Origin: Candidatus Fraserbacteria bacterium
GTDB taxonomy: Bacteria > Bipolaricaulota > Bipolaricaulia > RBG-16-55-9 > DRXL01
DNA length: 64,000 nucleotides
NCBI GenBank assembly: GCA_037440025.1
Contig: JBBIUX010000006.1
Span: forward strand, 11,296 to 75,295
Direction of reading: 5' to 3'
The notes beneath the pieces were generated by a model. That model saw nothing but the letters and a program-made list of their open reading frames with translations. It had not been told where the DNA came from and made no database searches. The position numbers were made by a program, and so were the translations under genes. Positions 5,741 to 44,499 of the stretch are shown in pieces (position 1 is the first letter of the stretch; every line of letters begins with the position of its first letter).

Positions 5741-5748
5741 AAACGATC

Positions 5749-18786: not shown

Positions 18787-18851
18787 GGGCTGGCTATAAA
18801 GAGCGCAGTGGGGAAGCCCTCGGAGCGCACGCTTCGGGGGCTTTTGGTTTT

Positions 18852-18920
18852 GAATCACGGAAGGCACGGAATCGCCACGGAGAGCACAGAAGAATGGTTC
18901 TCTCTGTGCCCTCCGTGATG
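18852..18920. repeat. CACGGAAG-type long hairpin repeat (family C)
   Basis: GAATCACGGAAGGCACGGAATCGCCACGG...CTGTGCCCTCCGTGATG imperfect inverted repeat; same family at 23487, 24298, 25286, 25923, 31209, 31616, 32321, 33231. Confidence 0.75.
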
Positions 18921-18984
18921 CAGAGCTTGCACGGGAAAGGGGGAGTAGGTAGGATAGCAAAGTGATTCTCTGGAGGCATTATAT

Positions 18985-19404
18985 ATGAAATGGCGTCCGG
19001 TCTATCTTGTTGGTATCGGAATCGTCGTGATCGCAGTGATCGGCGGCGGGCTCTGGTGGTGGCAAACGAGTTCCAATACCCTTGCCCCTACCCCACGCTA
19101 TCGCCCTGCCGTGCAAACCCCCCTCAGGACCGATGACCCCAACATCCGCGCAACTCTCGTCGTCTTGCAGTTGGGCAGCAACGAGGGCTTGCTGCGCGTC
19201 GTGCGCCACTACCTGCAACAGAACCCCCAAGCCGACTTCTATCACTTCATCGCCCCAGAGGGGACTATGCTGGCCCTGCGCACGGCAACTTTCTCCGACC
19301 CGGCAAAGCTCCCCCAACGGTTGCGCCAGCGCCTCGCCGCATGGCCCAAGATAACGCGCGCGGGGCGAGAAGGACTATACACCATCTACCATCTGGAGAA
19401 GTAG
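18985..19404 (+). CDS. Hypothetical membrane-anchored protein
   Basis: N-terminal TM helix (VYLVGIGIVVIAVIGGGLWWW); preceded by TAGGATAGC -10-like motif. Confidence 0.4.
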   Translation: MKWRPVYLVGIGIVVIAVIGGGLWWWQTSSNTLAPTPRYRPAVQTPLRTDDPNIRATLVVLQLGSNEGLLRVVRHYLQQNPQADFYHFIAPEGTMLALRTATFSDPAKLPQRLRQRLAAWPKITRAGREGLYTIYHLEK

Positions 19405-21138: not shown

Positions 21139-23355
21139 ATGCGAGTGATAATTGTTGTTGGGGTGTTGCTAGTGGTCGGAATAGTTGCTGAGGCACAGAC
21201 GCTACGAGTGACCGTGCCGGTGGATCTTGTCAATTGTGTATCGGGAGTGCCGCTGGTCGCGGGCCCGGACGCGGGGAGCGCTGTGGGTCCCGGCGGCGCT
21301 TGCGTTGTCGCTTCGGGCACTTACCCTGTAGCAGTTACCATTACCGTGCCCGGATTGATTCTGATTTCCACAAACGGCGCCATGGCCACGACGATCGCTG
21401 GCCCAGTCACTATAACTGCTGCGGCCAACGGTGTCACCCTTGGTCGAGCAGGCCAAGGATTTATGATCACCGGGGGCCTGACCGTAGGCGCTAATCAGAA
21501 CATTACTGTTGAGGACAGCATCTTCACAGGAAGTGGAGGGCCGGGAGTGTTGGTCGGTGCTCCAGGGGCTGTCCGTAATCTACGTTTTTTGAATCTTCAA
21601 GTACGCGCTAACGGAGGCGGGGGGATCATCTTCACGGGAGGATCTGTCGACGATCTGCTCATCACCGGGAGCGTGATCGAGACCAACGGAGGCCCGGGTA
21701 TAGGTTTCGCTATTGGCGGAAGCGTTCGCAGCTTCAACCTCTCTAGCAACCGCATCATTGGCAATGCGATCGGAGGGATCATCTTCGTTGGCCCCACCAA
21801 CGATGTTGAAGATAGCGAATTTTCTAATCTTATTGTACAAGGCAATGCCGGTCCGGGATTGGCTCTTGCTAACACCGGGCGCGTCATGGGGGTGGTGGTC
21901 TCTGGCAGTAACATCTCCAGTAACACCGGCGACAACGTCGTCTTTGGGAACGGCTTGACCTCAGATGTGGTGTTCGAGAACAACACTATAGAAAACGCCG
22001 CCGCCAACGGCGTAAACTTTTCCAATACTGGTGCGGTGGAAGACTTTGTCTTCCGGAACAACACCATCCAACGCAACGGCTTTAACGGCGTCTTGTTCTT
22101 CAACACCGGCAGGGTAGATAGCATTCAGATCCTTGACAACCGTCTGCGCAATAACGGTTTCCATAATCTTTTTATTAATCATCTGGGGCCTCGTGATTTC
22201 TCGGTCGGGCGGTTGACGATGGAGGGCGGCTTCGTCGACCAAGCGGGCGACAACGGCATCCGTATTGTGACTCTGACCACCGACATTGTCTTCATCACCT
22301 TGACCAATGTTCAAATCAGCAAGAACGGGGGGATAGGGGTCTGCTTACGCACAAACGGGGGAGCTATCGCTGACATCAAGTTTGAAGGAGCAGTTATCAA
22401 AGAAAACCAAGGGGGAGCAGGCTTAACTCCCTGTGATACAGCAGCTGCGCCGATCGGCTCTGGAGCGGAATTGATCACGCTGACGGGGAACATCGGTCCG
22501 GCAGAAGTTACTGGAAGCACCTTTGCCAATAATGGCGGCTTCGGCCTGCGCTTGCAATCGTTGGGGGCCGGTGGCGCGATGGGCGACGTGGGGCCGGTGG
22601 CTGTGCGAAACAGCGCATTCGATCAGAACGGCACGCGGGCCCCGGCGGGCTTGGGCTCTGGGTTCACCGCTCGAGGCCGAGGCGTCCGCGACATCTCCAT
22701 CAACCCCACCACAGCTAATAATAACAACGATCACGGCGTAGATATTCAAGCGACCAGTGATATTAGCAATGTCTCCATTACTGGAGGCGAGTTCTCCAAT
22801 AATGACCGCAACGTAGACACGATTGGCGCGGGGATCAACATCAGCGCCACGCAACGCCTGAGCGGTGTGAAAGTGACAGGAGCCAAGCTGATGTCGAATT
22901 CCCAGGGGGCGCGTGTTCAGGCCGACCGAGCTTCGGATAATCACATCAACCAGTGCGAGATCTCTGGCAATAGACAAGCTGGAGTTGAGGCCTCGATCAC
23001 GTCGGGAGACGATGTGGATGCAACGAACAACTACTGGGGCAGCCCTTCCGGCCCCAGCGGGACCAACGGCGCTGTGGGGCAGGTCACGGCCAGTCCGTTC
23101 TTGAGCGCCCCGCCGGGCGGTCCCACGCCGCCTACACCACCGACGCCACCCACACCGCCAACTCCACCGACCCCGCCGACGCCACCGGCGGGAGGCTTTG
23201 CCGCCTGCGCCGCAGGCGCAGATAACAGAATTGACGATCTAGAAATGCTGGGCATTCTCGATGCATGGATCAAGGGGCAGAGCTATCAAGCCTGCGGGGT
23301 GCCCACGGATTTGGACGTCTTGCAGGCGTTGGATCGCTGGGCGCGGGGAGTGTAG
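21139..23355 (+). CDS. Secreted parallel beta-helix protein, paralogue of the 13282 gene, with (PTPPT)n linker and C-terminal dockerin-like module
   Basis: Long stretches collinear with the 13282 product (NNNDHG..EFSNNDRNVDTIG.GI.IS, NYWGSPSGP); PTPPTPPTPPTPPTPPTPP; ATG at 21139 with GAGGGGGG SD. Confidence 0.7.
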   Translation: MRVIIVVGVLLVVGIVAEAQTLRVTVPVDLVNCVSGVPLVAGPDAGSAVGPGGACVVASGTYPVAVTITVPGLILISTNGAMATTIAGPVTITAAANGVTLGRAGQGFMITGGLTVGANQNITVEDSIFTGSGGPGVLVGAPGAVRNLRFLNLQVRANGGGGIIFTGGSVDDLLITGSVIETNGGPGIGFAIGGSVRSFNLSSNRIIGNAIGGIIFVGPTNDVEDSEFSNLIVQGNAGPGLALANTGRVMGVVVSGSNISSNTGDNVVFGNGLTSDVVFENNTIENAAANGVNFSNTGAVEDFVFRNNTIQRNGFNGVLFFNTGRVDSIQILDNRLRNNGFHNLFINHLGPRDFSVGRLTMEGGFVDQAGDNGIRIVTLTTDIVFITLTNVQISKNGGIGVCLRTNGGAIADIKFEGAVIKENQGGAGLTPCDTAAAPIGSGAELITLTGNIGPAEVTGSTFANNGGFGLRLQSLGAGGAMGDVGPVAVRNSAFDQNGTRAPAGLGSGFTARGRGVRDISINPTTANNNNDHGVDIQATSDISNVSITGGEFSNNDRNVDTIGAGINISATQRLSGVKVTGAKLMSNSQGARVQADRASDNHINQCEISGNRQAGVEASITSGDDVDATNNYWGSPSGPSGTNGAVGQVTASPFLSAPPGGPTPPTPPTPPTPPTPPTPPTPPAGGFAACAAGADNRIDDLEMLGILDAWIKGQSYQACGVPTDLDVLQALDRWARGV

Positions 23356-23483
23356 GCCCTCACCCCGCCCTGCGGGCACCCCGAGACGTTTTGGTGCAGC
23401 ATCTTTCCGAGAAAGCGGTCGCACCAAAACGTCTCGCCCTCTCCCGTAGTTGACCTACGGGAGAGGGGTTGGGGGTGAGGGCC
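23355..23483. repeat. Nested palindromic repeat, family B (GGCCCTCACCCC....GGGGGTGAGGGCC with inner GAGACGTTTTGGTGCAG/TCGCACCAAAACGTCTC)
   Basis: Outer and inner inverted repeats read directly; related copies at 33163, 62278 and in-frame in recG. Confidence 0.75.
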
Positions 23484-23486
23484 TCT

Positions 23487-23573
23487 GAATCACGGAAGGC
23501 GCGGAATCGCCACGGAGAGCACGGAAGATTTTTTCTGTGTCTTCCGTGGCCCGTTCGGTGTCCTCCGTGATTC
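23487..23573. repeat. Family C CACGGAAG hairpin repeat, copy with promoter tail
   Basis: ~135 bp near-identical to 31209-31338. Confidence 0.8.
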
Positions 23574-23578
23574 AAAGT

Positions 23579-23607
23579 TTGACCTGCAGAAGTGCCCAGG
23601 CTATACT
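23579..23607 (+). promoter_or_regulatory. Near-consensus sigma70 promoter TTGACC-17-TATACT embedded in the repeat tail
   Basis: TTGACC 23579-84, TATACT 23602-07, 17-nt spacer; ATG of next ORF at 23634. Confidence 0.6.
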
Positions 23608-23633
23608 GAAAGGGCTGAGGCGAGGTGTGAGCT

Positions 23634-23954
23634 ATGTCTGTCACGAAGTCGCAGCCAAAGCCCCAGGACGTAGAGAAATGGGGCGTCTATGCCAAGGCAA
23701 GTCGGCTCTTCGCGGAAAGGGTCAAAAACCTCCCCGGCGTCCGAGCCGTAGCAGCCAAATATTGCGGGGATTACGTGGATTTGTGGGTCTTCACCGACGA
23801 AGTCCACCAGAGCGAGTTGATCCACCCTGTGGGAGCGGCCCTCAAACAGCTCGGAGAGCAATTTCCTGAACTCCTCTTTGACTCGTTCGTAACACGTCAA
23901 GGGATCCCAGACGGCTTTGTAGCCTTCTTCCATGCCAACGCCCCAGGAGCATGA
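23634..23954 (+). CDS. Hypothetical protein, possibly nucleotidyltransferase-like
   Basis: 106 aa; GDYVDLWVF resembles a degenerate NT-fold motif; 23-nt overlap with next ORF. Confidence 0.3.
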   Translation: MSVTKSQPKPQDVEKWGVYAKASRLFAERVKNLPGVRAVAAKYCGDYVDLWVFTDEVHQSELIHPVGAALKQLGEQFPELLFDSFVTRQGIPDGFVAFFHANAPGA

Positions 23955-24285
23955 GGGGAAATCGCGCGCTATTGAGCGCCTCTTCTCCGTATTCAATGAC
24001 AATGAACCGGATCATTGGGATTGGCTGGCTATCGTAGCCTTCTACGCTGCGCTTCACTGGGTGGACGCTGCCCTGGCACACCAAGGGCTCCATCCGAGCA
24101 ACCATCGAGAGCGGAACCGGATGGCGCAAGGCTTGCCGATCTGGAACGAATATTACGAGCTCTACGCGGTAAGCCGGATTGCGCGCTACGAAGCAGGGCA
24201 TGTGTCCCAACAGATTGCCATACGCATGCGCGATCAGAATTTGCCCGCTGTACGTATCTGGGCTCAACAGACCAAGCAACCATAG
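23932..24285 (+). CDS. Hypothetical protein, possibly HEPN-like (R-x4-H in RYEAGH)
   Basis: 117 aa, helical, Rx4H motif; coupled to upstream ORF. Confidence 0.3.
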   Translation: MPTPQEHEGKSRAIERLFSVFNDNEPDHWDWLAIVAFYAALHWVDAALAHQGLHPSNHRERNRMAQGLPIWNEYYELYAVSRIARYEAGHVSQQIAIRMRDQNLPAVRIWAQQTKQP

Positions 24286-24297
24286 CGTTTGAAAGTA

Positions 24298-24393
24298 GAA
24301 TCACGGAAGGCGCGGAAATCGCCACGGGGGACACGGAAACGGCAGGTGTTTTCTGTGCCTTCCGTGGCTCTTTCTTCTGTGGGCTCCGTGGTT
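24298..24393. repeat. Family C hairpin repeat
   Basis: GAATCACGGAAGGCGCGGAAATCGCCACGG...GGCTCCGTGGTTC. Confidence 0.75.
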
Positions 24394-24486
24394 CAGAAGC
24401 GTTAGGGGATAGGTGAGGGGTGGCAAAGCGAACCTTCATCGGGTATAACTGAAATACCATGACCGCTATGCTTTTAGGAGAACTTA

Positions 24487-24759
24487 GTGCGCATTCGCAA
24501 GCTCCTGTGGAGCCAAGCTATCATCGAGAAATTGCACACAAAGCATCGAGTCTCGCCCAGCGAGGTCAAGGCCGTCTGTGCTGGCGCACATATAACATGG
24601 GCCGGACGACGTGGCACGTATTATCTGCTGGGACAGACCAAGAGCGGACGCTATCTCTTCGTCGTTGTGGCCCATAAAGGCTCCGGGGTGTTCAAAGTCA
24701 TCACTGCCCGAGATATGACCGAAGCCGAACGCCAACGCTTCTCGAGGAGGAGACCATGA
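24487..24759 (+). CDS. brnT: BrnT-family (DUF497) ribonuclease toxin
   Basis: 90 aa, GTG start; ...ETKH.V...EVE.VF...RYLTAFF/ RYLFVVVAHKG pattern of BrnT; overlaps antitoxin start. Confidence 0.65.
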   Translation: MRIRKLLWSQAIIEKLHTKHRVSPSEVKAVCAGAHITWAGRRGTYYLLGQTKSGRYLFVVVAHKGSGVFKVITARDMTEAERQRFSRRRP

Positions 24760-25103
24760 AACTCCCGAAATTTCGCTCCGAACAAGAAGAAGCAGCCTTC
24801 TGGGAGACCCACGACCTCAGCGATTATCTGGACGAGCTTGAGGAGATACAATTCGAGTGGGCTCCGGACGAAGACACCTGCCCCAGCTGCGGCGCGGCCA
24901 TGAAGCCTGAACAGTTCGAAGTCGAACTGCTGGAGGGGCTCTACCTGCGGAATCTGCGGCGATATCGCTGCCCGGTGTGCCAGACGGTCCAACTCACGCC
25001 GGAGTCGTTGGTGCACATCAACCAGACAGACAGCTTGATTAGGCGATTCGGATTAGCAGGGCTTCTGTTGCAAAAGGAGTTAGTAAGCGAGTTCAGAACC
25101 TAG
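24756..25103 (+). CDS. brnA: BrnA-like antitoxin with C-terminal zinc ribbon
   Basis: EEAAFWETHDLSDYLDE BrnA-type motif; CPSCG...CPVC. Confidence 0.6.
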   Translation: MKLPKFRSEQEEAAFWETHDLSDYLDELEEIQFEWAPDEDTCPSCGAAMKPEQFEVELLEGLYLRNLRRYRCPVCQTVQLTPESLVHINQTDSLIRRFGLAGLLLQKELVSEFRT

Positions 25104-25126
25104 CGCAAGCAAAAGCTGGCATCGAA

Positions 25127-25349
25127 GCGCCCCTGGGGGGAGACCCCCGGGGGCGGTGGTTTTTAACCTAACCCCCAAGCCCCCTTCCCAGCGAAGAGTC
25201 AAGAGTCTAGGAGTCGAGGGTCGAGAGACTCCAGACCCCCAGACTCTGGACCTTTCTGTAAGGGAGGGGCTAGGGGAGAGGTCTTGAACCACGGCAAGCA
25301 CGGAACCTGCCACGGGGAATACGGAAGACGGCGGGTCTTTTTCCGTGCC
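25127..25349. repeat. Composite intergenic repeat block: terminator-like GC hairpin+T-tract (family D), GAGTC/GACTC-rich repeat (family E), truncated family C hairpin
   Basis: GCGCCCCTGGGGGGAGACCCCCGGGGGCGGTGGTTTTTAACC; AGAGTCTAGGAGTCGAGGGTCGAGAGACTCCAGACCCCCAGACTCTGGACC; GAACCACGGCAAGCACGGAA... Confidence 0.75.
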
Positions 25350-25367
25350 TTAACGACACAGACGACT

Positions 25368-25478
25368 TTATAAATGCGGTGTCCGCCGCTCCGCCAGGTA
25401 GTCGCGGATCAGAGGAAGCACCGTAAATCCCAAAGCTGTTAGCCCAATGACCAGGAGAATAATGTACAGCGGTAACAT
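25368..25478 (-). CDS. Tiny single-TM peptide (36 aa, MLPLYIILLVIGLTALGFTVLPLIRDYLAERRTPHL), second gene of the small-membrane-peptide cassette
   Basis: Not in ORF track (<60 aa); ATG 2 nt after stop of upstream gene; paralogue of 31509-31616 product. Confidence 0.5.
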   Translation of the reverse strand: MLPLYIILLVIGLTALGFTVLPLIRDYLAERRTPHL

Positions 25479-25480
25479 AC

Positions 25481-25702
25481 TCACCCCCTCGCGATCTTCC
25501 TTAACCGTAAATAGCCGAAAATATAGATCAGCAACCAGATAATTGATCCCAGGACCGAGACCCCCAAGTGAAATCCTTCCGGGTTAAGAAACTGACCGAA
25601 GACCAGCGCGCCAATGGCAATATTCGCCACATCAAACAGCTTCTCGATAACAACGCGCTCTGCTTCGTGCTCTCCCGATAGAGGCTTTTCCTTTTTACTC
25701 AT
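25481..25702 (-). CDS. Small two-TM membrane protein (73 aa), paralogue of 31339-31509 product
   Basis: LFDVANIAIGALVFGQF...LGSIIWLLIYIFGY aligns with LMDVANYAAGALLIGQI...LGGAIWLCFYAIEE. Confidence 0.55.
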   Translation of the reverse strand: MSKKEKPLSGEHEAERVVIEKLFDVANIAIGALVFGQFLNPEGFHLGVSVLGSIIWLLIYIFGYLRLRKIARG

Positions 25703-25789
25703 GCTATTAGCAGTATAGAAGCCCCGTCCGGTTTTGTCAATGGTGGGAGCGCAGGGCGAGTGTTTTCCCCCTCACCCCTTGCTCCCCTC

Positions 25790-26013
25790 TCCCTTCGCGG
25801 TGGTTTTTGACCTAACCCCCCAGCCACCTTCCCAGCGAAGAGTCTAGGAGTCGAGGGTCGAGAGACTCCAGACCCCCAGACTCTGGACCTTTCTGTAAGG
25901 GAGGGGCTAGGGGAGAGGTCTGCATCACGGAAGGCGCGGAATCGCCACGGGGGACACGGAAACGGCAGGTGTTTTCAGTGCCTTCCGTGGCTCTTTCTGT
26001 GGGCTCCGTGGTT
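25790..26013. repeat. Composite repeat block: partial family D, family E (GAGTC-rich), family C hairpin
   Basis: Near-duplicate of the 25127-25349 block in the opposite arrangement around the small membrane gene. Confidence 0.75.
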
Positions 26014-26105
26014 CGAGCTTGCACCGCAAAGCCCCAGGAGGGAGGGAGAGGGGACAGCTTGAACGAAACCGCCGCATAGGGTAGGATGGCTAATCGGAGA
26101 GCACG

Positions 26106-26342
26106 ATGAGCACTGCCATAATGTCGAAACAAACAGAGAAAGCCAAGCAGTTCTATCGCCGGTTGGAGCCCCGCTTGCTCCCTGAGCATCGTGGGCAGAT
26201 CGTAGCCATCGAAATCGAGTCCGGGACTTATTTCCTCGGGGATGACGAGCTGGAGGTCGCCCGCCGTGCCCAAGCCCAATTCCCTGACAAACTCTTTTAT
26301 TTCTTCCGCGTCGGGGAACGCGCCGTCCACAAACTGCGCTAA
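26106..26342 (+). CDS. Small DUF5678-like protein (partner of retropepsin-like protease)
   Basis: 78 aa; stop immediately precedes start of protease gene (TAATG). Confidence 0.4.
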   Translation: MSTAIMSKQTEKAKQFYRRLEPRLLPEHRGQIVAIEIESGTYFLGDDELEVARRAQAQFPDKLFYFFRVGERAVHKLR

Positions 26343-26713
26343 TGCTTCGCGGACGGGTCAATGAGTACGGCGAGCCGCTGGTGGTGATCACCTTGGACTT
26401 GGGCCATAAACGCCAACGGCAGACTGCCATCATTGATACTGGTTTTAACGGTTACCTGAGCGTGCCCAAGCCCGTGATTCAGCAATCTGATTGGCAGTGG
26501 CTTGGCTTTGAGGACTATGAGCTGGCCTCCGGAGCCGTTGTCCGAGAGCAAGTCTACCGGGGAAGAATCATCTTCGATCAGAAACGACTGGAGGTCTACG
26601 TGGTGGCCACTGATTCCGCAGATATTTTGATCGGCACACGATTATTGCAAAGCAAGCGGCTGTTGATCGACTTTAGCAGCGACGCAGTTCACATCAAGGA
26701 CAGTCGCGACTAA
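26342..26713 (+). CDS. Retropepsin-like (clan AA) aspartic peptidase
   Basis: AIIDTGFNGYLSVP = DTG active-site motif in a ~120-aa single-lobe protease. Confidence 0.6.
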   Translation: MLRGRVNEYGEPLVVITLDLGHKRQRQTAIIDTGFNGYLSVPKPVIQQSDWQWLGFEDYELASGAVVREQVYRGRIIFDQKRLEVYVVATDSADILIGTRLLQSKRLLIDFSSDAVHIKDSRD

Positions 26714-26727
26714 GAAGGACAGCCTCG

Positions 26728-26830
26728 AGCGCCCCTGGGGGAGCGATCCCCGGGGGCGGTGGTTTTTGACCTAACCCCCGACTACTACAAAGGTGGGGAG
26801 GGGCTAGGGGAGAGGTCTCGCCGCGTGCAA
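26728..26830. repeat. Family D terminator-like hairpin + GGGGCTAGGGGAGAGGTC tail
   Basis: GAGCGCCCCTGGGGGAGCGATCCCCGGGGGCGGTGGTTTTTGACCTAACCCCC... Confidence 0.7.
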
Positions 26831-26881
26831 ACGGCTTGCACGGCTGTGGCTGGCGGAGTAGGATAACAAGGGTGATCGCGC

Positions 26882-27445
26882 ATGGCCACCAAAGCCCAGA
26901 TCAAATTCACCTACGAAGACTACAAGAGCCTGCCTTACTCAGAGCGCGAGCGCTTTGAGCTCCTGGAAGGAGAGCTGATCCCTATGCCGCCGTCCCCAGG
27001 ATTCGCCCATCAATCGGTCTCGTTGGAGCTGGTTACCCGACTCCATCTCTTTGTGCAGGAGAGAACATTAGGGACGGTCCTTGAGGCCCCCTTTGACGTA
27101 GTGCTGGGAGAGCCCGGGGAAGAGCAGGTCGTGCAGCCGGACATTCTCTTCGTCTCCAAGGAGCGACGCCGTATCATCCAGGAAGACGAAATTCGCGGAG
27201 CGCCTGACCTCGTCGTCGAAATTCTCTCCCCTTCTACGAAAGAGAAGGATCGCACCTACAAGCGCCGTCTCTATGCCAAGTATGGCGTCCGGGAATACTG
27301 GATCGCCGATCCCGACAGTCAGACCATCGAGGTACTCACGCTGGGCAAGCGGGGCTATGAACGGGCCGGGCTCTATCACAAAAACGAGATATTGGAGTCG
27401 CCGCTCTTGTCGGGTCTGCGAATTCCCCTGAGCGAAGTCTTATAG
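26882..27445 (+). CDS. Uma2-family (DUF820) restriction-endonuclease-fold protein, paralogue 1
   Basis: MATKAQIKFTYEDYKSLPY...QPDILFVS...GAPDLVVEILSPST (PD-(D/E)xK-like core). Confidence 0.75.
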   Translation: MATKAQIKFTYEDYKSLPYSERERFELLEGELIPMPPSPGFAHQSVSLELVTRLHLFVQERTLGTVLEAPFDVVLGEPGEEQVVQPDILFVSKERRRIIQEDEIRGAPDLVVEILSPSTKEKDRTYKRRLYAKYGVREYWIADPDSQTIEVLTLGKRGYERAGLYHKNEILESPLLSGLRIPLSEVL

Positions 27446-27455
27446 GACGGAGTCT

Positions 27456-28952
27456 TTGCTCTTTCCAACACGAAGACGGGTTTTGCTATTCGCTGCCATA
27501 GCTCTGTTGGGAGCAGCTTTGGGATTTGGCGGTCTCTTAGAAAGCTGCCAGCCCCCCAATAAAGCGCCGTTAGCGCGCTTCAGCTTTAGCCCCAAAGAGC
27601 CCAAAATCGGGGAGACCGTCACGTTTGACGGCTCGGCTTCGCGAGATCCCGACGGCAAGATTGTCAGCTATCTGTGGGATTTTGGCGACGGAGCGACCGC
27701 TCAGAACGTGACGACAACGCATGCGTTTCAGGAAGACGGCGAGTACGATGTCATTCTGCAGGTAATGGATGACCGCGGCACGAGCTCTAATGTGGAGAAA
27801 ACAGTGCGCGTTGCTCCGCTCAACGAACTGCCTACAGCAAGCTTCACCGTCGCCCCCAGCGAGCCGAAGACAAACCAATCTGTCACTTTTGACGCTTCAG
27901 CATCGGTTGATCCAGACGGCACGATCACAGCTTATACGTGGGAGTTCGGCGATCAAACGACAGGGCAAAACAAGATCGCCACGCACGTCTATAAGACGGC
28001 GGGCACGTACACCGTGAAGCTCACGGTGACGGACAACAAGGGCGCGAAATCTTCGGCCACTAAAGGAATTACTGTTATAGAGGCTCCGCCCAACGAGCCG
28101 CCGTTTGCGAAACTTGACTTCACCCCCGCGACCGCGACGGTCAATGAGCCCGTGAACTTCGACGCTTCCGAATCGCGCGACGACGGCCAGATTGTCAAAT
28201 ATCAATGGGATTTTGGCGACGGTGCCAGCGGTGAGGGTCAGCAGGTCTCGCACACATATAAAACGGCTGGGACGTTTATCGTCAAGCTGACGGTGACAGA
28301 CGATCTCGGTGCAACTGGTTCGACCACGCGCAGCGTGATCGTTCGCGAGTCTGCTGTCATAGAGTCGTTCGCCGTGCCAGGGGAGGAGCCCAGCGGGCTC
28401 GCCTGGGACGGGGAGAACTTCTGGCTGGCTGATATAGACAGCGAGAAGATCTATAAGCTCGATAAAGCCGGGAAGATTCTAAGCTCGTTCGCTGCCCCAG
28501 GGAGCACGCCGACCGGGCTGGCCTGGGATGGGGAGAACTTGTGGGTTGCCGATAGCCTGGATGCACGGATTTATAAAGTCAATCCCCAGAATGGAAAAGT
28601 CACCGGCGCTTTTGATCTCCCCAACTCCGATCCCCAAGGGCTCGCCTGGGATGGCGAGAATCTCTGGGTGATGGACGCCGACACGGGGAAGCTCGAAAAG
28701 CTCGACTCCAACGGGGATGTGCTCGAATCGTTTGACTCCCCCGGCGACTCCCCGGCAGGCCTTACCTGGGACGGCAAAAATCTATGGATGAGTGACAGCG
28801 ATGCCGGGTTAATCAAAATTGACCCAGCGACGGGCAAACAGATCAGCACCGTCAAAGCCCCCGGTCCCGACCCGCGCGGCCTGGCTTGGGATGGGACGTA
28901 TCTGTGGGTCGTGGATGGTGAGGACCTCAAAGTCTATCGGGTGGCGCCATGA
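27456..28952 (+). CDS. Lipoprotein with three PKD domains and a beta-propeller of ~6 'GLAWDGENLWV' blades
   Basis: VTFDGSASRDPDGKIVSYLWDFGDG x3; periodic P.GLAWDG.NLWV.D x6; TTG start, LLESC lipobox-like. Confidence 0.6.
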   Translation: MLFPTRRRVLLFAAIALLGAALGFGGLLESCQPPNKAPLARFSFSPKEPKIGETVTFDGSASRDPDGKIVSYLWDFGDGATAQNVTTTHAFQEDGEYDVILQVMDDRGTSSNVEKTVRVAPLNELPTASFTVAPSEPKTNQSVTFDASASVDPDGTITAYTWEFGDQTTGQNKIATHVYKTAGTYTVKLTVTDNKGAKSSATKGITVIEAPPNEPPFAKLDFTPATATVNEPVNFDASESRDDGQIVKYQWDFGDGASGEGQQVSHTYKTAGTFIVKLTVTDDLGATGSTTRSVIVRESAVIESFAVPGEEPSGLAWDGENFWLADIDSEKIYKLDKAGKILSSFAAPGSTPTGLAWDGENLWVADSLDARIYKVNPQNGKVTGAFDLPNSDPQGLAWDGENLWVMDADTGKLEKLDSNGDVLESFDSPGDSPAGLTWDGKNLWMSDSDAGLIKIDPATGKQISTVKAPGPDPRGLAWDGTYLWVVDGEDLKVYRVAP

Positions 28953-31147
28953 AGTTTTTCAGTCTTTTGGGGATCGGGCTGTTGGCGCTTTCTGTCGGTG
29001 CTGGTGCCCAGACGGGACCGCCGCCAGCCAAATTTGCTTATGACCAACTCGAAAGCCGGCTCGTTGAAGTCGCCCAACGCACCGGAGACAGAACAGCTTG
29101 GGCGCTGCAACACGGGATTCGCTTGGAATCGGGTACCGTGAGCGTCATTCTTGAAAGCGATCAGGTCCGTGAGCAGTCTCTTACGGCGCTCGGCGCTCAG
29201 ATTGAGGCCCGATCTTCCCGTCTGGTGCGCGTGCGCGTGCCCGCTGAAAAGCTCTTTGAACTGGCAGAGAGTTTGCCCCAGAGCGCCTATGTGCGGCTCC
29301 CGCTGCGTCCCTGGGGTGCAACAATCGAAGGTCTCCAGGTGACCGGTGCGAGCGGGTTTCACGCCCAAGGTGTTCGTGGCCAGGGGGTGCGCGTGGCCGT
29401 GATAGATATCGGGTTTTCGGGGCTCTCCGCGGCCATCGCTGCGGGCCGGATTGCTCACGTCGTCTTTCACAAAGACTACACGGGGCTGGGGATGGAAGGT
29501 GGCGACGAACCCCATGGAACAGATGTGACAGAGATTCTCTCCGCCATGGCCCCGGAGGCCGAGTTCTTACTCTATCGAATCACAGATGAAGTTGATTTAG
29601 AGAACGCCGTGGAAGACGCGCTGCAGCGCGGTGTCGAGATTATCAATCACTCGGTCGGCTGGGTGAACACCGATTTTGGCGACGGGACGGGACTGATCGC
29701 ACAGATCGCGCAAAACGCCGTTCGTCGTGGGGCCGTCTGGGTCAACGCTGCCGGAAACGCCGCGCAACGGCATTGGGCAGGGCTATGGCAAGATTTTGAC
29801 AGAGATGGTTGGCTCAATGTCGAAGACGAACGCGAGCGGCTCGCGCTCGAAGTCGAGGCCGGCGACACTATAGAGATCTTTCTGACGTGGGACGAATGGC
29901 CTCGGGCGCGTACGGACTATGATCTCTATCTGTTCTACGATCTTAATGGCGATGGGCAGCTCGATGCCGAAATGGAGATAGTCGCCTCTTCGGTCAATCG
30001 CCAAAGCGGCAGACAGCCCCCAACAGAGAGCATCGAATATCTCGCTCCCCTGCCCGGGCACTATGCTATTGCCGTTGGAGGCCCACCGGAGGCAGCGGGG
30101 AGCGCATTGGAGATTTTCAGCTTTAATCACGACCTGACACCGGCGGTTGCCGCGGGGAGTCTGTTGGCTCCGGCGCAGGCTCCCGACGTGATCGCCGTGG
30201 GTGCTGTAGATTACCAAGAGTATACCCAGGGCACGATCGAGCCTTTTAGCTCCCAAGGGCCGACCAGTGATGGCCGAATGAAACCCGATCTGGCGGCCCC
30301 CGACGGCGTGCTGGTCTCTACAGGGCGCTTCTTTGGGACCTCGGCGTCAGCCCCATTTGTTGCTGGTGCCGCAGCGCTTCTGCTCTCTCTTGAGCCTAAC
30401 TTAAGCCCGGCTCAACTGCGCGTGCGCCTGCTCGCGCAGACTGCTGACGTTGGTCCTGTTGGGGCGGACAACGTTTTTGGCGCGGGCAAGCTGCTATTGC
30501 GCTTTAATACGCAACCGTCGGTTCCCGAACCTGCCGTTTCACAGCTTGATGTAGAGGCGAAGACCAGTGAATTGAAGTGCAAGGAGGGCAAGACAAAGAC
30601 CCTGAGATTCAAAGCGGAAAACACCAGCGATGATGACATTGAAATTGACGAAACCCTCATCGCTACGAATGCCTATTTCGAGCGTGATAGGGACAAGGCA
30701 GCCGGCAAGGTCGTGAAGGCAGACAAGAAGAAGACTCTGTCTGTCAAGGTGGAGTGTCTGCAGACAGAGACCCTCAGCAAGAGCGAATACGAGCAGTATG
30801 TGAGCTTCAGGACCGACGAAGGCGGAGGCCGGATTGCTTATGCTTATCCATCGGGCGTTGGCTCGGTGGTCGCTACGGCTTTGAGTGTCAATGGCGTGCG
30901 GCTCTCCAAGAGCAGAGCGATCTTCGACGTGCAGGGTGCCCCCTTGGCCCAGGTGCAGGTCTTCAGCCTGAGCGGCAAGATGGTCTACGATAGCGGCATG
31001 GTCGCGAGCAGCTCACTCTCCTGGAACCTGCTCAATGAGTCCGGGCAGCGCGTGCCCAATGGCGTCTATCTCTATGTCGTGACGATGCAGGCGCCCGATG
31101 GCCGGTTGGTCAAGAGCAAGATCCAGAAGCTAGTCGTGTTGAGATAG
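28949..31147 (+). CDS. Subtilisin-like S8 serine peptidase with T9SS type-A C-terminal sorting domain
   Basis: D (VAVIDIG), H (HGTDV), S (GTSASAPFVAGAAALL) catalytic motifs; C-terminus VQVFSLSGKMV...NGVYLYVVTMQAPDGRLVKSKIQKLVVLR. Confidence 0.8.
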   Translation: MKFFSLLGIGLLALSVGAGAQTGPPPAKFAYDQLESRLVEVAQRTGDRTAWALQHGIRLESGTVSVILESDQVREQSLTALGAQIEARSSRLVRVRVPAEKLFELAESLPQSAYVRLPLRPWGATIEGLQVTGASGFHAQGVRGQGVRVAVIDIGFSGLSAAIAAGRIAHVVFHKDYTGLGMEGGDEPHGTDVTEILSAMAPEAEFLLYRITDEVDLENAVEDALQRGVEIINHSVGWVNTDFGDGTGLIAQIAQNAVRRGAVWVNAAGNAAQRHWAGLWQDFDRDGWLNVEDERERLALEVEAGDTIEIFLTWDEWPRARTDYDLYLFYDLNGDGQLDAEMEIVASSVNRQSGRQPPTESIEYLAPLPGHYAIAVGGPPEAAGSALEIFSFNHDLTPAVAAGSLLAPAQAPDVIAVGAVDYQEYTQGTIEPFSSQGPTSDGRMKPDLAAPDGVLVSTGRFFGTSASAPFVAGAAALLLSLEPNLSPAQLRVRLLAQTADVGPVGADNVFGAGKLLLRFNTQPSVPEPAVSQLDVEAKTSELKCKEGKTKTLRFKAENTSDDDIEIDETLIATNAYFERDRDKAAGKVVKADKKKTLSVKVECLQTETLSKSEYEQYVSFRTDEGGGRIAYAYPSGVGSVVATALSVNGVRLSKSRAIFDVQGAPLAQVQVFSLSGKMVYDSGMVASSSLSWNLLNESGQRVPNGVYLYVVTMQAPDGRLVKSKIQKLVVLR

Positions 31148-31170
31148 TCGTATAAAAGAACGGAATCGGA

Positions 31171-31295
31171 GCGCCCTTGGGGGGAGACCCCCGGGGGCGT
31201 TGGTTTTTGAATCACGGAAGGCGCGGAATCGCACGGAAAGCACGGAAGGTTTTTTTCTGTGTCTTCTGTGGCCTGTTCGGTGTCCTCCGTGATTC
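31171..31295. repeat. Family D terminator-like hairpin + family C hairpin (second copy of the promoter-bearing unit)
   Basis: GCGCCCTTGGGGGGAGACCCCCGGGGGCGTTGGTTTTTGAATCACGGAAGG... Confidence 0.8.
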
Positions 31296-31300
31296 AAAGT

Positions 31301-31329
31301 TTGACCTGCAGAAGTGCCCAGGCTATACT
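31301..31329 (+). promoter_or_regulatory. TTGACC-17-TATACT promoter (identical to 23579-23607); near-leaderless start
   Basis: ATG at 31339 lies only 9 nt after the -10 hexamer. Confidence 0.6.
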
Positions 31330-31338
31330 GAAAGGGCA

Positions 31339-31509
31339 ATGAACCCGAAACAGCGAGAAGTCTTGGCAGAGAAACTGATGGACGTCGCCAACTATGCAGC
31401 CGGTGCATTGCTGATCGGCCAGATCATTAGCAAAGAGTTCATCATGGCTTGGACGCTCCTGGGCGGAGCGATTTGGTTATGCTTCTACGCGATTGAGGAG
31501 GTGCAGTAA
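31339..31509 (+). CDS. Small two-TM membrane protein (56 aa), cassette gene 1
   Basis: MNPKQREVLAEKLMDVANYAAGALLIGQIISKEFIMAWTLLGGAIWLCFYAIEEVQ; paralogue of the 25481-25702(-) product. Confidence 0.55.
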   Translation: MNPKQREVLAEKLMDVANYAAGALLIGQIISKEFIMAWTLLGGAIWLCFYAIEEVQ

Positions 31510-31616
31510 TGGATACAGTTTTGTTGCTGTTGCTCATCATCCTCGTGGGGGGACTAGCCTTCACGCTGCCCACGATCATTGGGGACTGGCGGCGGGCGCG
31601 CTCCGGGCATAAGTAG
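31509..31616 (+). CDS. Tiny single-TM peptide (35 aa), cassette gene 2
   Basis: MDTVLLLLLIILVGGLAFTLPTIIGDWRRARSGHK; start overlaps upstream stop (TAATG); paralogue of 25368-25478(-). Confidence 0.5.
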   Translation: MDTVLLLLLIILVGGLAFTLPTIIGDWRRARSGHK

Positions 31617-31701
31617 AATCACGGAAGGCGCGGAATCGCCACGGAGAGCACGGAAGTTTTTTCTGTGCCTTCCGTGGTTCTTTCTGTGGACTCCGTGATT
31701 C
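31616..31701. repeat. Family C hairpin repeat
   Basis: GAATCACGGAAGGCGCGGAATCGCCACGGAGAGCACGGAAG-TTTTTTCTGTGCCTTCCGTGG... Confidence 0.8.
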
Positions 31702-31707
31702 CAACGC

Positions 31708-31751
31708 TTGTACAGTGAGGGGGAATGGAGTACCATAACAAGGTGATCTCT
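31708..31751 (+). promoter_or_regulatory. Conserved Uma2 leader: TTGTAC-17-TACCAT promoter-like element + AAGGTGA SD
   Basis: Identical leader at 33303-33346; related TAGGATAAC-AAGGTGATC leaders at 26858 and 33918. Confidence 0.45.
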
Positions 31752-32312
31752 ATGGCCACCAAAGCCCAGATCAAGTTTACTTACGAAGATTACAAAAGCC
31801 TGCCCTACGTGGAGCGCGAGCGCTTTGAGCTCCTGGAAGGAGAGTTGATTATGGCCCCGTCGCCCAATACAGAGCATCAAGAAATTGCTCGTGAACTCTT
31901 CCGCCCTCTGGGGGAGCATATCCGTAGCCATAACCTAGGGAAGATCTATTTTGCTCCTTTAGATGTCGTGCTAGGGGAACCCGGCAACGAACAGGTCGTC
32001 CAACCTGATATTCTCTTTGTCTCTCAAGCCCGTCGCACGATTATCCGCGATGATGAGATCCGCGGAGCCCCAGACTTAGTCGTGGAGATCATCTCGCTCT
32101 CGACGGAAGAGAAGGACCGGGTTTTCAAGCGCCGCCTCTATGCCAAGTATGGCGTCCAGGAATACTGGATCACCGATCCCGACAGTCAGACCATCGAGGT
32201 ACTCACGCTGGGCAAGCGGGGCTACGAGCGGGCGGGACTGTATACGAAGAGCGAGACGCTGAAATCGCCGCTCTTGCCGGGCTTGCACATCCCCCTTGAT
32301 GAGATCTTCTAG
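31752..32312 (+). CDS. Uma2-family endonuclease-fold protein, paralogue 2
   Basis: Same N- and C-terminal sequences as paralogue 1 (~95% nt identity in 3' third), divergent middle. Confidence 0.75.
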   Translation: MATKAQIKFTYEDYKSLPYVERERFELLEGELIMAPSPNTEHQEIARELFRPLGEHIRSHNLGKIYFAPLDVVLGEPGNEQVVQPDILFVSQARRTIIRDDEIRGAPDLVVEIISLSTEEKDRVFKRRLYAKYGVQEYWITDPDSQTIEVLTLGKRGYERAGLYTKSETLKSPLLPGLHIPLDEIF

Positions 32313-32320
32313 AGGCCTTT

Positions 32321-32393
32321 GAATCACGGAAGGCACGGAATCGCACGGAGAGCACGGAAGAACGGCGGGTCTTTTCAGTGTCTTCCGTGGCTC
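32321..32393. repeat. Family C hairpin repeat
   Basis: GAATCACGGAAGGCACGGAATCGCACGGAGAGCACGGAAG...TCTTCCGTGGCTC. Confidence 0.75.
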
Positions 32394-32459
32394 CGCGAGA
32401 GTTCCGGGTTTTCAGGAGACGGCTTGAACGCAACCAAAGAGCGTGATAGGATAAGCTAG

Positions 32460-33088
<629 letters not shown>

Positions 33089-33110
33089 GAGAACCCAACC
33101 CAACGGAATA

Positions 33111-33295
33111 GGCCGCCCTTGGGGGGAGACCCCCGGGGGCGTTTGTTTTTGGGGGCCCTCACCCTGGCCCCTCACCCCTCTGGCTCCCCTCTCCCTCGGA
33201 GGGGAGAGGGGACGGGGGTGAGGGCCTGTGCATCACGGAACGCACGGAAGACTTTCTCTGTGCCTCCCGTGGCTTTTTCAGTGCGTTCTGTGATT
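33111..33295. repeat. Composite repeat block: family D hairpin, family B palindrome, family C hairpin
   Basis: GGCCGCCCTTGGGGGGAGACCCCCGGGGGCGTTTGTTTTTGGGGGCCCTCACCC...GGGGGTGAGGGCCTGTGCATCACGGAACGCACGGAAG... Confidence 0.75.
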
Positions 33296-33346
33296 CCAAC
33301 GCTTGTACAGTGAGGGGGAATGGAGTACCATAACAAGGTGATCTCT

Positions 33347-33940
33347 ATGGCCATCAAAGCCCAGATCAAATTCACCTACGAAGATTACAAGAGCCTGCCC
33401 GAATCTGAGACCGAGCGCTATGAGCTTGTAGAGGGGGAGTTGGTGATGGTTCCTTCACCAGATACAGAACATCAAGATATTGTCGGTAACCTCTTTCGGT
33501 TGCTCAGTGACCACGTCCATAAGCACCGGTTGGGCAAGGTCTACCTCGCTCCCCTGGACGTCGTGCTGGGGGAGCGAGATGAGGAGGAGGTTGTCCAACC
33601 GGATATTCTGTACGTCTCCTACCAGCGTCGGGGTATCATCGCCCGCGAGGAGATCCGTGGTGCTCCAGACCTGATCGTCGAGGTGCTCTCCCCCTCCACA
33701 GCTCAACGTGACCGCACCTTGAAAAAGAAGTTGTACGCACGTCACGGGGTGCAGGAGTATTGGATTGTCGACCCGAAAGCACAAACGCTCGAGGTCTATG
33801 AGTGGCGACCGAAGGGCTTCGAGCGTGTTGGGCTCTATGGTGCTGAGCAAACGCTTACTTCTCGTCTCTTGCCAACCTTACACATTCCCCTGAGAGAAAT
33901 TTTCAATGACCGAGACGGACAAGGTAGGATAACAAGGTGA
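33347..33940 (+). CDS. Uma2-family endonuclease-fold protein, paralogue 3 (3' end reads through the conserved leader of paralogue 4)
   Basis: MAIKAQIKFTYEDYKSLPE...; C-terminus ...DRDGQGRITR encoded by the GGTAGGATAACAAGGTGA leader. Confidence 0.7.
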   Translation: MAIKAQIKFTYEDYKSLPESETERYELVEGELVMVPSPDTEHQDIVGNLFRLLSDHVHKHRLGKVYLAPLDVVLGERDEEEVVQPDILYVSYQRRGIIAREEIRGAPDLIVEVLSPSTAQRDRTLKKKLYARHGVQEYWIVDPKAQTLEVYEWRPKGFERVGLYGAEQTLTSRLLPTLHIPLREIFNDRDGQGRITR

Positions 33941-33945
33941 TCTCT

Positions 33946-34509
33946 ATGGCCACCAAAGCCCAGATTAAATTTACTTACGAAGACTACAAGAGCCTGCCCT
34001 ACGTGGAGCGCCAACGCTTCGAGCTACTCGAAGGAGAATTGATCCCTATGACGCCATCACCCGGTGAGGCCCATCAGGCCACTTCCATAGCCCTGTCGTC
34101 CTTGCTGTACCGATTTGTTCGGGAGCATCAGGTGGGCCGCGTCTACGAAGCCCCATTTGATGTCGTCTTAGGAGAACCAGGAGAGGAGCAGGTCGTCCAG
34201 CCCGATATTCTCTTTGTCTCTCAAGTCCGTCGCACGATTATCCGCGATGATGAGATCCGCGGAGCCCCAGACTTAGTCGTGGAGATCCTCTCACCCTCGA
34301 CCGAAGAGAAGGACCGGGTTTTCAAGCGCCGCCTCTATGCTAAGTATGGGGTAACAGAGTATTGGATTGTGGACCCCGACGCTCGAACTATAGAGGTGCT
34401 GGCGCTGGGCAAGCGGGGCTACGAGCGGGCTAGGCTCTATAAAAAAAGTGAGACGCTGGAATCGCCGCTCTTGCCGGGGTTACACATCGCACTCAATGAA
34501 GTCTTTTGA
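33946..34509 (+). CDS. Uma2-family endonuclease-fold protein, paralogue 4
   Basis: MATKAQIKFTYEDYKSLPYVERQRFELLEGELIPM...; stop overlaps recG start region. Confidence 0.75.
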   Translation: MATKAQIKFTYEDYKSLPYVERQRFELLEGELIPMTPSPGEAHQATSIALSSLLYRFVREHQVGRVYEAPFDVVLGEPGEEQVVQPDILFVSQVRRTIIRDDEIRGAPDLVVEILSPSTEEKDRVFKRRLYAKYGVTEYWIVDPDARTIEVLALGKRGYERARLYKKSETLESPLLPGLHIALNEVF

Positions 34510-41081: not shown

Positions 41082-41288
41082 ATCGCTTCCTCCTTTCTCC
41101 AAAGTTCCGAGCGTCTTCTTCCAGCTGGTTTGCCACAGATATATGGACAGGAAGAGACGCGCTAACGGTCCCCCTAATGTAGCAAAACAGGCGTGAATCT
41201 GCAAGTTTGAGAGACCCTGGCCGGTGTGGCTCCGCCTTGATTGCTTCTCAGAGACTTTTACGGCTATAATCGTCTGGGTGAGTGCACT

Positions 41289-44262: not shown

Positions 44263-44289
44263 CGAGCAGATTATTGTCTTGATATACTT

Positions 44290-44496: not shown

Positions 44497-44499
44497 AAG

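Follow-up and report, generated by a model that had tools for sequence, protein, structure and literature searches.

A hypervariable islet of about ten transcription units lies at 23.36–34.51 kb of the 64,000-nucleotide stretch of Candidatus Fraserbacteria contig JBBIUX010000006.1 analysed here (the window), between the gene of a conserved secreted beta-helix protein and recG. Nearly all units are co-oriented, and in the reading of 23.2–34.7 kb unit 3 is the only one on the minus strand. Probably the islet is a set of autonomous units, each bounded by mosaics of palindromic repeats of dispersed families; the boundaries would recombine by homology, and their hairpins would bound the expression of each unit. 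The spacers, which make up 2,049 of the 11,155 nt, are read as mosaics of four families: an intrinsic terminator that is conserved, a palindrome composed of CACGGAA heptads (the heptad palindrome) and two G/C-rich palindromes, C and D, that resemble repetitive extragenic palindromes (REPs). An initial annotation, made from the sequence alone, had described an accessory stretch in which the spacers across 23.3–34.5 kb reuse the same parts. The reuse is borne out by the CACGGAAG, terminator, nhmmer and promoter counts given below, and the accessory character by the hypervariability of the sister loci.

The main element of the spacers is a palindrome of 65–95 nt with the ends (T)GAATCACGG...CCGTGATTC, present in versions from 1+1 to 4+4 heptads. 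The window contains the motif CACGGAAG 22 times, a number reached in none of 100 shuffles (2.7 expected), and 16 of the 22 occurrences fall inside 23.4–33.3 kb. Those at 38963 and 39011 are pyrH coding sequence without an element, and at the remaining outside hits (12869, 15738 and 54703) the nhmmer census placed no heptad element. A profile built from five copies and run on the 64 kb with nhmmer returned exactly nine heptad palindromes, one at 18.85 kb and eight in the islet, starting at 18851, 23487, 24298, 25285 (truncated), 25922, 31209, 31616, 32320 and 33233. All nine are oriented on the plus strand, where they score 27–93 bits against 15–34 on the other strand. From locus to locus and from species to species the outer 19–20 nt (GAATCACGGAAGGCRCGGAA and its complement) are conserved, and the interior drifts. 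Searched against Rfam 15, the 64 kb gave no match at the gathering score; relaxed thresholds gave only a spurious microRNA-precursor match on one palindrome (34 bits against a 102-bit cut-off). Literature searches with 16-mers and 10-mers returned primer coincidences only, and no description of such repeats was found for Bipolaricaulota, Acetothermia or Fraserbacteria.

The heptad palindrome is asymmetric between strands and co-oriented with the genes. Consensus heptads number 23 on the plus strand and 7 on the minus strand of the islet, and 46 in the sense direction versus 19 across the window lineage, where tandem consensus heptads number 8 in sense and none on the other strand. The plus strand also folds better by 2.4–17 kcal/mol, the difference reaching 10–17 kcal/mol in five of the seven islet copies folded. 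Automatic orientation of the hairpins by open reading frames (ORFs) was dropped because spurious antisense ORFs arise at 57% G+C; with orientation taken from the hidden Markov model and context assigned manually, a hand tally found about 25 copies, of the 28 that could be assigned, in the orientation of the neighbouring gene. The check on repeat orientation proposed with the initial annotation thus comes out in favour of co-orientation, by nhmmer and hand tally together. Regional mutational bias was considered as the cause of the heptad asymmetry and discarded: in these spacers, families C and D are either symmetric or biased in the opposite direction.

Each of eight matches to the promoter pattern TTG-N-[AC]-C-N17-TA(GGAT/TACT/CCAT) in the window lies on the plus strand, 10–30 nt before a plus-strand start codon, with no match on the minus strand and a mean of 0.09 in Markov simulation. 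The predicted promoters have the features of the sigma-70 type, with hexamers 17 nt apart, a suitable distance to the start codon and conservation in relatives, and the proposal that each unit carries its own promoter is supported. The heptad palindrome ends 4–8 nt before the -35 box. Among related loci, 15 of 34 heptad palindromes lie 3–8 nt from a promoter, compared with 0.76% of random positions, and 13 of these 15, in the window lineage, are directly upstream of the -35 box. Segments 23529–23615 and 31251–31337 are 98% identical and stand ahead of unrelated genes. The same type of promoter is conserved ahead of recG in islet-free relatives (TTGACC-17-TAGGAT-N7-ATG). Since it recurs ahead of recG and rpmF in relatives, TAGGAT-like hexamers are taken as the probable -10 box of the lineage, and several units would be leaderless or nearly so. 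The start codon of recG in the window, ATG 34496, falls within the final 14 nt of the fourth Uma2 gene (Uma2#4), and recG has no promoter of its own there; in the more distant relatives L121–L124 and L185, it stands behind a leaderless TTGACC-17-TAGGAT promoter of its own. In the window, this promoter seems to have been displaced by the array.

The terminator family is recognised by its 3' half, CCCCGGGGGCGNTGGTTTTTGA, of which four copies were found with up to three mismatches (at 25145, 26748, 31189 and 33131) against 0 expected. These GC-rich hairpins are the best terminator-like sites in a terminator scan of 18–36 kb. Their stems of 12–14 bp contain 10–11 GC pairs, five consecutive T's follow within 8–10 nt of the stem, and the predicted folding energies are -29 to -33 kcal/mol. 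They start at 25128, 26730, 31170 and 33114, 16–25 nt past the stop codons at 25103, 26713, 31147 and 33088, which confirms the GC-rich hairpins with T-tract initially reported after four stops. With a GC stem-loop and a T-run on the coding strand close to the stop, they are predicted to be intrinsic (Rho-independent) terminators. They form one family common to the sister genomes, with a conserved loop and some compensatory pairs. The order reported initially, a terminator followed by a heptad hairpin, is found directly only at 31170; another palindrome family stands between the two at 25128 and 33114, and 26730 has no heptad palindrome.

Families C and D fold very stably on both strands, without the strand bias of the heptad palindrome. 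Family C (GACCTAACCCCC...GGGGAGAGGTC) is found in the islet at 25165, 25808 and 26769, with 25201–25284 identical to 25838–25921, and family D (GGCCCTCACCCC...GGGGGTGAGGGCC) at 23357 and 33155. Family C also stands between housekeeping genes outside the islet, at 5661, 6414 and 55880. The family C palindromes outside the islet (5661–5741, 6414–6492, 7224–7250 and 55880–55970) separate an AP-endonuclease-like gene from transaldolase and follow a gene whose end is near 55875; judged by eye only, the family also flanks an apparent nucleotidyltransferase/HEPN toxin-antitoxin pair at 6490–7240.

Sister loci drawn from a RecG-anchored metagenome scan were compared with the window by blastn, and the gap between the beta-helix gene and recG proved hypervariable. 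It measures 11.1 kb in the window, 2.3 kb in L120 and 2.2 kb in L126, at a nucleotide identity between L120 and the window of ~89% across recG and 87–91% in the downstream genes. The L120 gap begins with a terminator, a TTGCGC-17-TAGGAT promoter, a toxin-antitoxin-like pair absent from the window and the last ~110 nt of an S8-type gene with its terminator, and continues with a heptad palindrome, a promoter, a Uma2 gene, a terminator variant, a promoter and an orthologue of Uma2#4. In L126 the gap contains a DUF6722-like pair, a terminator, a palindrome, one Uma2 gene, a mini-palindrome, a promoter and a coiled-coil gene. The closest named locus among the matches listed, L034 (Fraserbacteria G05_MAG_00009), is syntenic and ~78% identical to the window in nucleotide sequence; its contig ends inside an array of a minus-strand peptide pair, a DUF6722-like pair, a VapBC pair, one Uma2 gene and DUF433/DUF5615, in which one promoter module is present in three copies and the region of the minus-strand peptides (unit 3) is 85% identical to that of the window. 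Thus the same kinds of spacer part are found in the window, L120, L126 and L034 around different gene sets. Relatives at 80% RecG identity have a sulfatase-like gene at the site and no array.

Units also change place between genomes. The DUF6722-like pair and the coiled-coil gene, units that sit before recG in the window, L034 and L126, follow the orthologue of a 1232-aa beta-helix protein in L113 and L104, each with its upstream palindrome and promoter; the corresponding site of the window, after its 1232-aa beta-helix gene, has neither. Since these units relocate together with the upstream palindrome and promoter, the palindrome travels as the 5' boundary of the unit. A 165-nt composite of ACGGAATCGG, terminator, palindrome and -35 box at window 31157–31310 recurs with 78% identity at a non-orthologous site in L045. 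The comparison with sister genomes suggested at the outset accordingly shows units of repeat, promoter and gene gained, lost and relocated between genomes. Boundaries of the window have exact stretches of up to 84, 63, 57, 40 and 37 nt in common, and stretches of 84, 63 and 57 nt are ample for RecA-dependent recombination. The sister comparisons contain no filled-site/empty-site pairs for insertion boundaries, because the sister spacers differ too much.

The repeats are not confined to the islet. An exact scan with the 18-mer ATCACGGAAGGCRCGGAA over 185,579 species genomes gave at least 117 loci; among the matches listed, about 31 are true heptad palindromes and the others coding coincidences. 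The palindromes among the matches listed are mostly on many contigs of at least eight Bipolaricaulota/Acetothermia metagenome-assembled genomes (MAGs) and of two Fraserbacteria MAGs. Exact 18-mer matches are few per MAG among the matches listed, against nine copies of the palindrome in this 64-kb window. RecG-anchored loci of other bacteria, 767 kb in all, contain the palindrome only in the two sister islands. The same 18-mer matched 18 loci of viral contigs, all coding coincidences without a hairpin. Scattered over many species and over spacers between housekeeping genes, the heptad palindrome and family C are dispersed families, genome-wide and lineage-wide, rather than devices specific to the islet. 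Arrays of CACGGAA followed by inverted TTCCGTG also occur beside housekeeping genes in intergenic DNA of unrelated phyla (L006, L117, L053, L058, L098, L106, L108, L048 and L091) and in Poribacteria (L013, L024, L049, L062, L076, L081 and L088); in L053, a Bacteroidales MAG, the array ends in a terminator-like T-run. Descent from a common ancestor, a reader in common or a look-elsewhere effect arising from the 18-mer query could each account for these cross-phylum arrays.

A separate arrangement is found at rpmF, the gene of ribosomal protein L32. In four MAG species the heptad palindrome fills the gap between a conserved promoter (TTGCAC-17-TAGAAT), which overlaps the end of dtd, and the ribosome-binding site, and is predicted to form the extreme 5' end of the rpmF mRNA. 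Two of these copies pass the strict promoter motif, and the other two have variant hexamers.

The coordinates of these features are collected in Table 1. The islet is flanked by chromosomal genes for housekeeping and surface proteins, on the left those of ArgRS, FtsY, TatD and beta-helix proteins and on the right those of RecG, GatC, PyrH, Tsf, RpsB and DnaB, and its G+C content equals that of the flanks. Gene calls were checked with Pfam and NCBIfam. The BrnA-like, DUF433/DUF5615, PKD and S8 proteins and the four Uma2 proteins named initially score above threshold, and the BrnT-like and clan-AA protease-like proteins stay below the Pfam and the NCBIfam cut-off, respectively. The PKD and S8 genes, initially taken for cassettes of their own, form one unit with Uma2#1; no promoter is present between the three genes of unit 5. 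Uma2#3 extends into the -10 box (TAGGAT) and leader of Uma2#4, and the spacer between them has therefore been deleted. The leaders and first ~70 nt of the four Uma2 paralogues (TAGGATAACAAGGTGATC..ATGGCCACCAAAGCCCAGATCAA; 26859–26960, 31729–31830, 33324–33425 and 33926–34025) are near-identical, and the remainder of each gene is just 65–84% identical, which suggests gene conversion or a constraint on the 5' end. No literature on the function of Uma2 was found. A role of Uma2 as a cis-linked partner nuclease of the palindrome was rejected, since only 3 of 31 hairpin loci, and 0 of 86 controls, have Uma2 within 8 kb, which makes no general association.

Table 1. Boundary elements and transcription units of the islet, with the outlying boundary of the window and the rpmF-site palindromes of related loci. 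Coordinates are window positions unless a locus is named; energies are predicted folding energies.
Feature	Coordinates	Strand	Remarks
Outlying composite boundary	18812..18955	+	Terminator-like hairpin 18812–18845; heptad palindrome 18853–18920; promoter TTGCAC-17-TAGGAT 18927–18955; before ORF 18985–19404
Family D palindrome (GGCCCTCACCCC...GGGGGTGAGGGCC)	23357..23483	.	Two nested hairpins, directly after the beta-helix stop (23355); -92 kcal/mol on either strand
Heptad palindrome, full size	23488..23572	+	-58.5 kcal/mol on + versus -46.0 on -
Promoter TTGACC-17-TATACT	23579..23607	+	Ahead of unit 1
Unit 1	23634..24285	+	Two overlapping small ORFs (106 and 117 aa), without family match
Heptad palindrome	24299..24393	+	13 nt past stop, no T-run terminator ahead
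Unit 2	24487..25103	+	BrnT-like (24487–24759, sub-threshold); BrnA/CopG-like antitoxin (24756–25103)
Repeat-family intrinsic terminator (predicted)	25128..25166	+	12-bp GC stem, GAGA loop, T-run; -33 kcal/mol
Family C palindrome (GACCTAACCCCC...GGGGAGAGGTC)	25165..25284	.	Nested internal palindrome
Heptad palindrome, right arm truncated	25285..25351	+	Abuts 3' end of minus-strand genes
Unit 3	25363..25740	-	Two small membrane peptides (25363–25479, 25481–25702); promoter TTGACA-17-TATACT (25740–25712)
Terminator 3'-half remnant (GCGGTGGTTTTTGA)	25797..25921	.	Fused to second family C palindrome
Heptad palindrome	25923..26013	+	Followed by orphan TTGCAC
Unit 4	26059..26713	+	Promoter TTGAAC-17-TAGGAT (26059–26087); 78-aa ORF (26106–26342); clan-AA aspartic-protease-like ORF (26342–26713, sub-threshold)
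Repeat-family terminator and family C palindrome	26730..26820	+	Terminator 26730–26768; short family C palindrome 26769–26820; without heptad palindrome
Unit 5	26836..31147	+	Promoter TTGCAC-17-TAGGAT (26836–26864); Uma2#1 (26882–27445); PKD/beta-propeller lipoprotein (27456–28952); S8 protease with sorting-domain tail (28949–31147)
Repeat-family terminator	31170..31207	+	Conserved ACGGAATCGG just before
Heptad palindrome	31210..31294	+	Immediately after terminator; -51.5 versus -34.6 kcal/mol
Unit 6	31301..31616	+	Promoter TTGACC-17-TATACT (31301–31329); DUF6722-like 56-aa membrane protein (31339–31509); 35-aa peptide (31509–31616)
Heptad palindrome	31617..31700	+	From first base past stop
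Unit 7	31708..32312	+	Promoter TTGTAC-17-TACCAT (31708–31736); Uma2#2 (31752–32312)
Heptad palindrome	32320..32395	+	Without outer right arm
Unit 8	32424..33088	+	Promoter TTGAAC-17-TAGGAT (32424–32452); DUF433 (32469–32714); DUF5615 (32711–33088)
Repeat-family terminator, family D and heptad palindromes	33114..33295	+	Terminator 33114–33152; family D palindrome 33155–33228; short 2+2 heptad palindrome 33231–33295
Units 9–10	33303..34509	+	Promoter TTGTAC-17-TACCAT (33303–33331); Uma2#3 (33347–33940); Uma2#4 (33946–34509)
rpmF-site palindromes	L055 2489–2575; L107 4761–4852; L040 26–119; L010 2390–2470		

In the favoured account, each unit would open with a housekeeping-type promoter of the lineage (TTGNNC-17-TAGGAT/TATACT/TACCAT), followed by a short leader or none, and the heptad palindrome would move with promoter and gene as the 5' boundary of the unit. 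Homologous recombination between boundaries, either within the chromosome or with DNA of relatives, would be the likeliest route by which whole units are added, deleted, duplicated and moved, because the boundaries share exact identities of 20–84 nt. At the ends of transcripts the heptad palindrome would form a very stable sense-strand hairpin that stops or processes read-through from the preceding unit, with or without a T-run terminator, and would make the expression of a unit independent of its neighbours. The initial idea of insulated cassettes would then be a fair guess at function, and the role of the hairpin in stopping or processing transcript ends is put forward tentatively, as a possibility somewhat short of an even chance.

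Several observations weigh against this account. The promoters, the terminators and the insulation are all predictions. A T-run terminator is present at just four of the nine boundaries, where one had initially been placed between nearly every gene. The heptad hairpin reaches -29 to -58 kcal/mol, yet no U-tract follows it and the T-rich stretch is in the loop, so that it lacks the features of an intrinsic terminator. Its strand asymmetry is weak or absent beyond the window lineage (18:16 and 11:9) and may be inherited from a founder copy; copies in the same genome are related by duplication, so that the counts of orientation and adjacency are not counts of independent events. The palindrome of the rpmF site stands 3 nt downstream of the -10 box, a poor fit to an upstream insulator, and among the four species its outer 20 bp do not vary and compensatory pairs are absent. 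RNA structure can therefore not be argued from covariation, and the conservation of the outer arms in sequence suggests a sequence-specific reader rather than mere pairing. Not every deletion in the sister genomes ends in repeats, an example being the one that left the S8 remnant of L120. A role in binding a protein would be compatible with both the rpmF arrangement and the sequence-specific conservation.

It is unlikely that the palindromes are purely selfish non-autonomous elements, either MITEs (miniature inverted-repeat transposable elements) or REP/REPIN-like, which pile up in accessory spacers with a regularity due to insertion preference and have no part in expression or turnover. The heptad palindrome does have MITE-like terminal inverted repeats, its conserved ends enclosing a variable interior; insertions are nested, with other palindromes in the loop in L002 and inner palindromes in families C and D; sizes are modular and several copies truncated; and copies are spread across many contigs and species in genome-specific variants that suggest within-genome bursts or concerted evolution. 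Inspection by eye of the sequences on either side of about 20 copies, however, reveals no target-site duplication of the kind that marks MITEs, and nothing but a continuation of the palindrome (TTTGAATC...GATTCAAA). The loci examined contained no lone or split arms enclosing a transposase, and the copies in other phyla have housekeeping genes as neighbours. A Pfam scan of the islet ORFs and 30 flanking ORFs (~45 kb, positions 1–43.5 kb, the ORFs at 43.5–64 kb lying outside the scan) identified no integrase, recombinase, transposase or REP-associated tyrosine transposase (RAYT), and neither a transposase nor a RAYT stands beside the copies examined in other phyla. REPs and REPINs are palindromes of 20–40 nt with a GTAG or CGTC end tag (PMC3733652); at 65–95 nt all heptad copies lack the tag. 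Also at odds with selfish spread are the absence of viral-contig copies in the 18-mer scan, the few copies per genome among the matches listed (nine in the window), their retention at orthologous sites in three to four species with invariant outer arms, the non-random orientation and a promoter spacing fixed at 3–8 nt.

The invariance of the outer 20 bp at orthologous sites without covariation would also be expected of a DNA operator array for an oligomeric sequence-specific regulator, whose regulon would comprise promoter-proximal sites at the cassette promoters and rpmF and in which the hairpin is incidental; we regard this as quite unlikely. The heptads are paired 9 nt apart and the pairs spaced by 20–21 nt, about two helical turns; the arrays sit within tight limits, from -40 to -125 upstream of promoters or, at rpmF, from +1 to +90; and copies are few per genome among the matches listed. 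Arrays of WATCACW heptads in front of promoters, among them the promoter of a toxin-antitoxin operon, are bound by ribbon-helix-helix proteins such as the omega protein of pSM19035. Against an operator, the window lineage keeps consensus heptads in one arm only (the 46 versus 19 given above), and the changes in the other arm keep sense-strand G-U pairing, for which a double-stranded DNA operator has no need; no candidate regulator was found, and an 85-bp operator in versions of 1+1 to 4+4 units would be unusual. Very improbable is a function of the heptad palindromes as folded single-strand recombination sites, analogous to attC and used by an unlinked recombinase, as in an attC cluster without an integrase. 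The islet resembles such a cluster in its co-oriented cassettes, rich in toxin-antitoxin-like pairs and small genes of no known family, in one similar and strand-asymmetric imperfect palindrome between nearly all of them and in the presence of cassettes at different loci in different genomes. It departs from it in that no RYYYAAC...GTTRRRY core site is present at any junction: an attC core-site regular expression over 23.3–34.6 kb matched once per strand, in the same segment inside Uma2#3 (33701–33833), and none of the eight junction palindromes qualifies. Moreover, no integrase or recombinase was identified among the ORFs scanned or in the sister loci, every cassette has its own promoter unlike typical integron cassettes, the palindrome is also present in the rpmF leader and between housekeeping genes elsewhere, and the homology between orthologous cassettes breaks at no one fixed position of the palindrome.

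The loci differ in other respects as well. Outside the islet, two short ORFs at window 44274–44681 are absent in L120, and L120 has a 250-nt insert between recG and gatC (8462–8712); neither indel is bounded by the repeat families. In L045 (MAG SKW78; 4930–5290) the order after the beta-helix orthologue is degenerate mini-palindrome, promoter, internally deleted Uma2 pseudogene and then lpdA in place of recG, so that the synteny of the islet is not fixed across the group. The dnaB gene (window 41241–42695) carries an in-frame insertion of ~1.24 kb in L120 (14125–15367) and L126 (10052–11305) that is absent from the window (at about position 42450). The gene with the insertion is an open frame of 897 aa with intein-like junctions (...DLRE/CVTGDT ... 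VVHN/SGEIEQ, slashes marking the junctions), a predicted intein presence/absence polymorphism.

If the account of autonomous units is true, the accessory arrays of this candidate phylum are composed of self-contained units of palindrome, promoter, gene and terminator, whose boundaries both set transcript ends and give the homology for recombination. In this simple way cassettes could be shuffled without a recombinase, and the units would be nature's counterpart of the insulated expression units made by engineering. For a lineage of which no member is cultured, the parts give usable models of a promoter (TTGNNC-17-TAGGAT, often leaderless) and of a terminator, and the invariant arms of the heptad palindrome at orthologous sites call for a binding partner. 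A bolder version, which we consider a long shot, is that the palindrome is a cis-element read sequence-specifically by a putative protein or RNase common to Bipolaricaulota and Fraserbacteria and perhaps, in view of the similar heptad arrays between genes of several other phyla, far more widespread, and that with the lineage promoter it would make a portable 5' boundary by which gene units could be cut, pasted and expressed whatever their context, an integrase-less and promoter-carrying counterpart of integron cassettes. Were the repeats merely selfish, they would be an ordinary new repeat family.

The initial annotation knew of no comparably regular architecture, yet the bacterial interspersed mosaic elements (BIMEs) of E. 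coli, the Correia elements of Neisseria (PMC2649163), integron attC arrays and reused promoters (PMC3575422) are all comparable. As with the BIMEs and REPs of enterobacteria and pseudomonads (PMC2817692, PMC3116915, PMC3733652), several families of short extragenic palindromes form mosaic intergenic clusters dispersed over the genome, after stop codons and between co-transcribed genes, for which roles in termination or protection of mRNA ends have been proposed. Unlike BIMEs and REPs, the islet elements have no GTAG/CGTC tag, no RAYT was seen in the ORFs scanned, and the main element is 65–95 nt long with one to four CACGGAA heptads per arm, stands at a fixed 4–8 nt from the -35 box and is concentrated in a hypervariable cassette array. 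Correia elements are likewise intergenic palindromes, ~100 nt long, which provide promoters or lie next to them and which some strains have and others lack (PMC2649163; review PMC10969869). They carry promoters and terminators (PMC2649163), can terminate, and yield transcribed hairpins sensitive to RNase III (PMC2649163; PMC10969869). In contrast, the heptad palindrome has no recognised TA target duplication or integration host factor (IHF) site, its promoter lies outside the element with a spacer and -10 box that vary between copies, and the islet belongs to a different phylum and combines several other repeat families. Integron arrays and integrase-less attC clusters share with the islet co-oriented small cassettes, toxin-antitoxin-like or of no known family, one imperfect palindrome family between them and a content that varies among relatives; the islet differs in having neither attC cores nor, in the scanned ORFs, an integrase, in its own promoter and often own terminator for each cassette and in a palindrome that also occurs outside arrays. 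Reused, putatively mobile promoters are near-identical promoter segments ahead of unrelated genes in one genome (PMC3575422), as in the pair 23529–23615/31251–31337 and the three copies in L034; in the islet, however, the promoter is coupled to a specific upstream palindrome inside a cassette array. The REP/BIME/MITE theme is thus already known and the islet is not a categorically new system; it would represent a dense local form of the BIME/REP/MITE-like intergenic repeats of its lineage.

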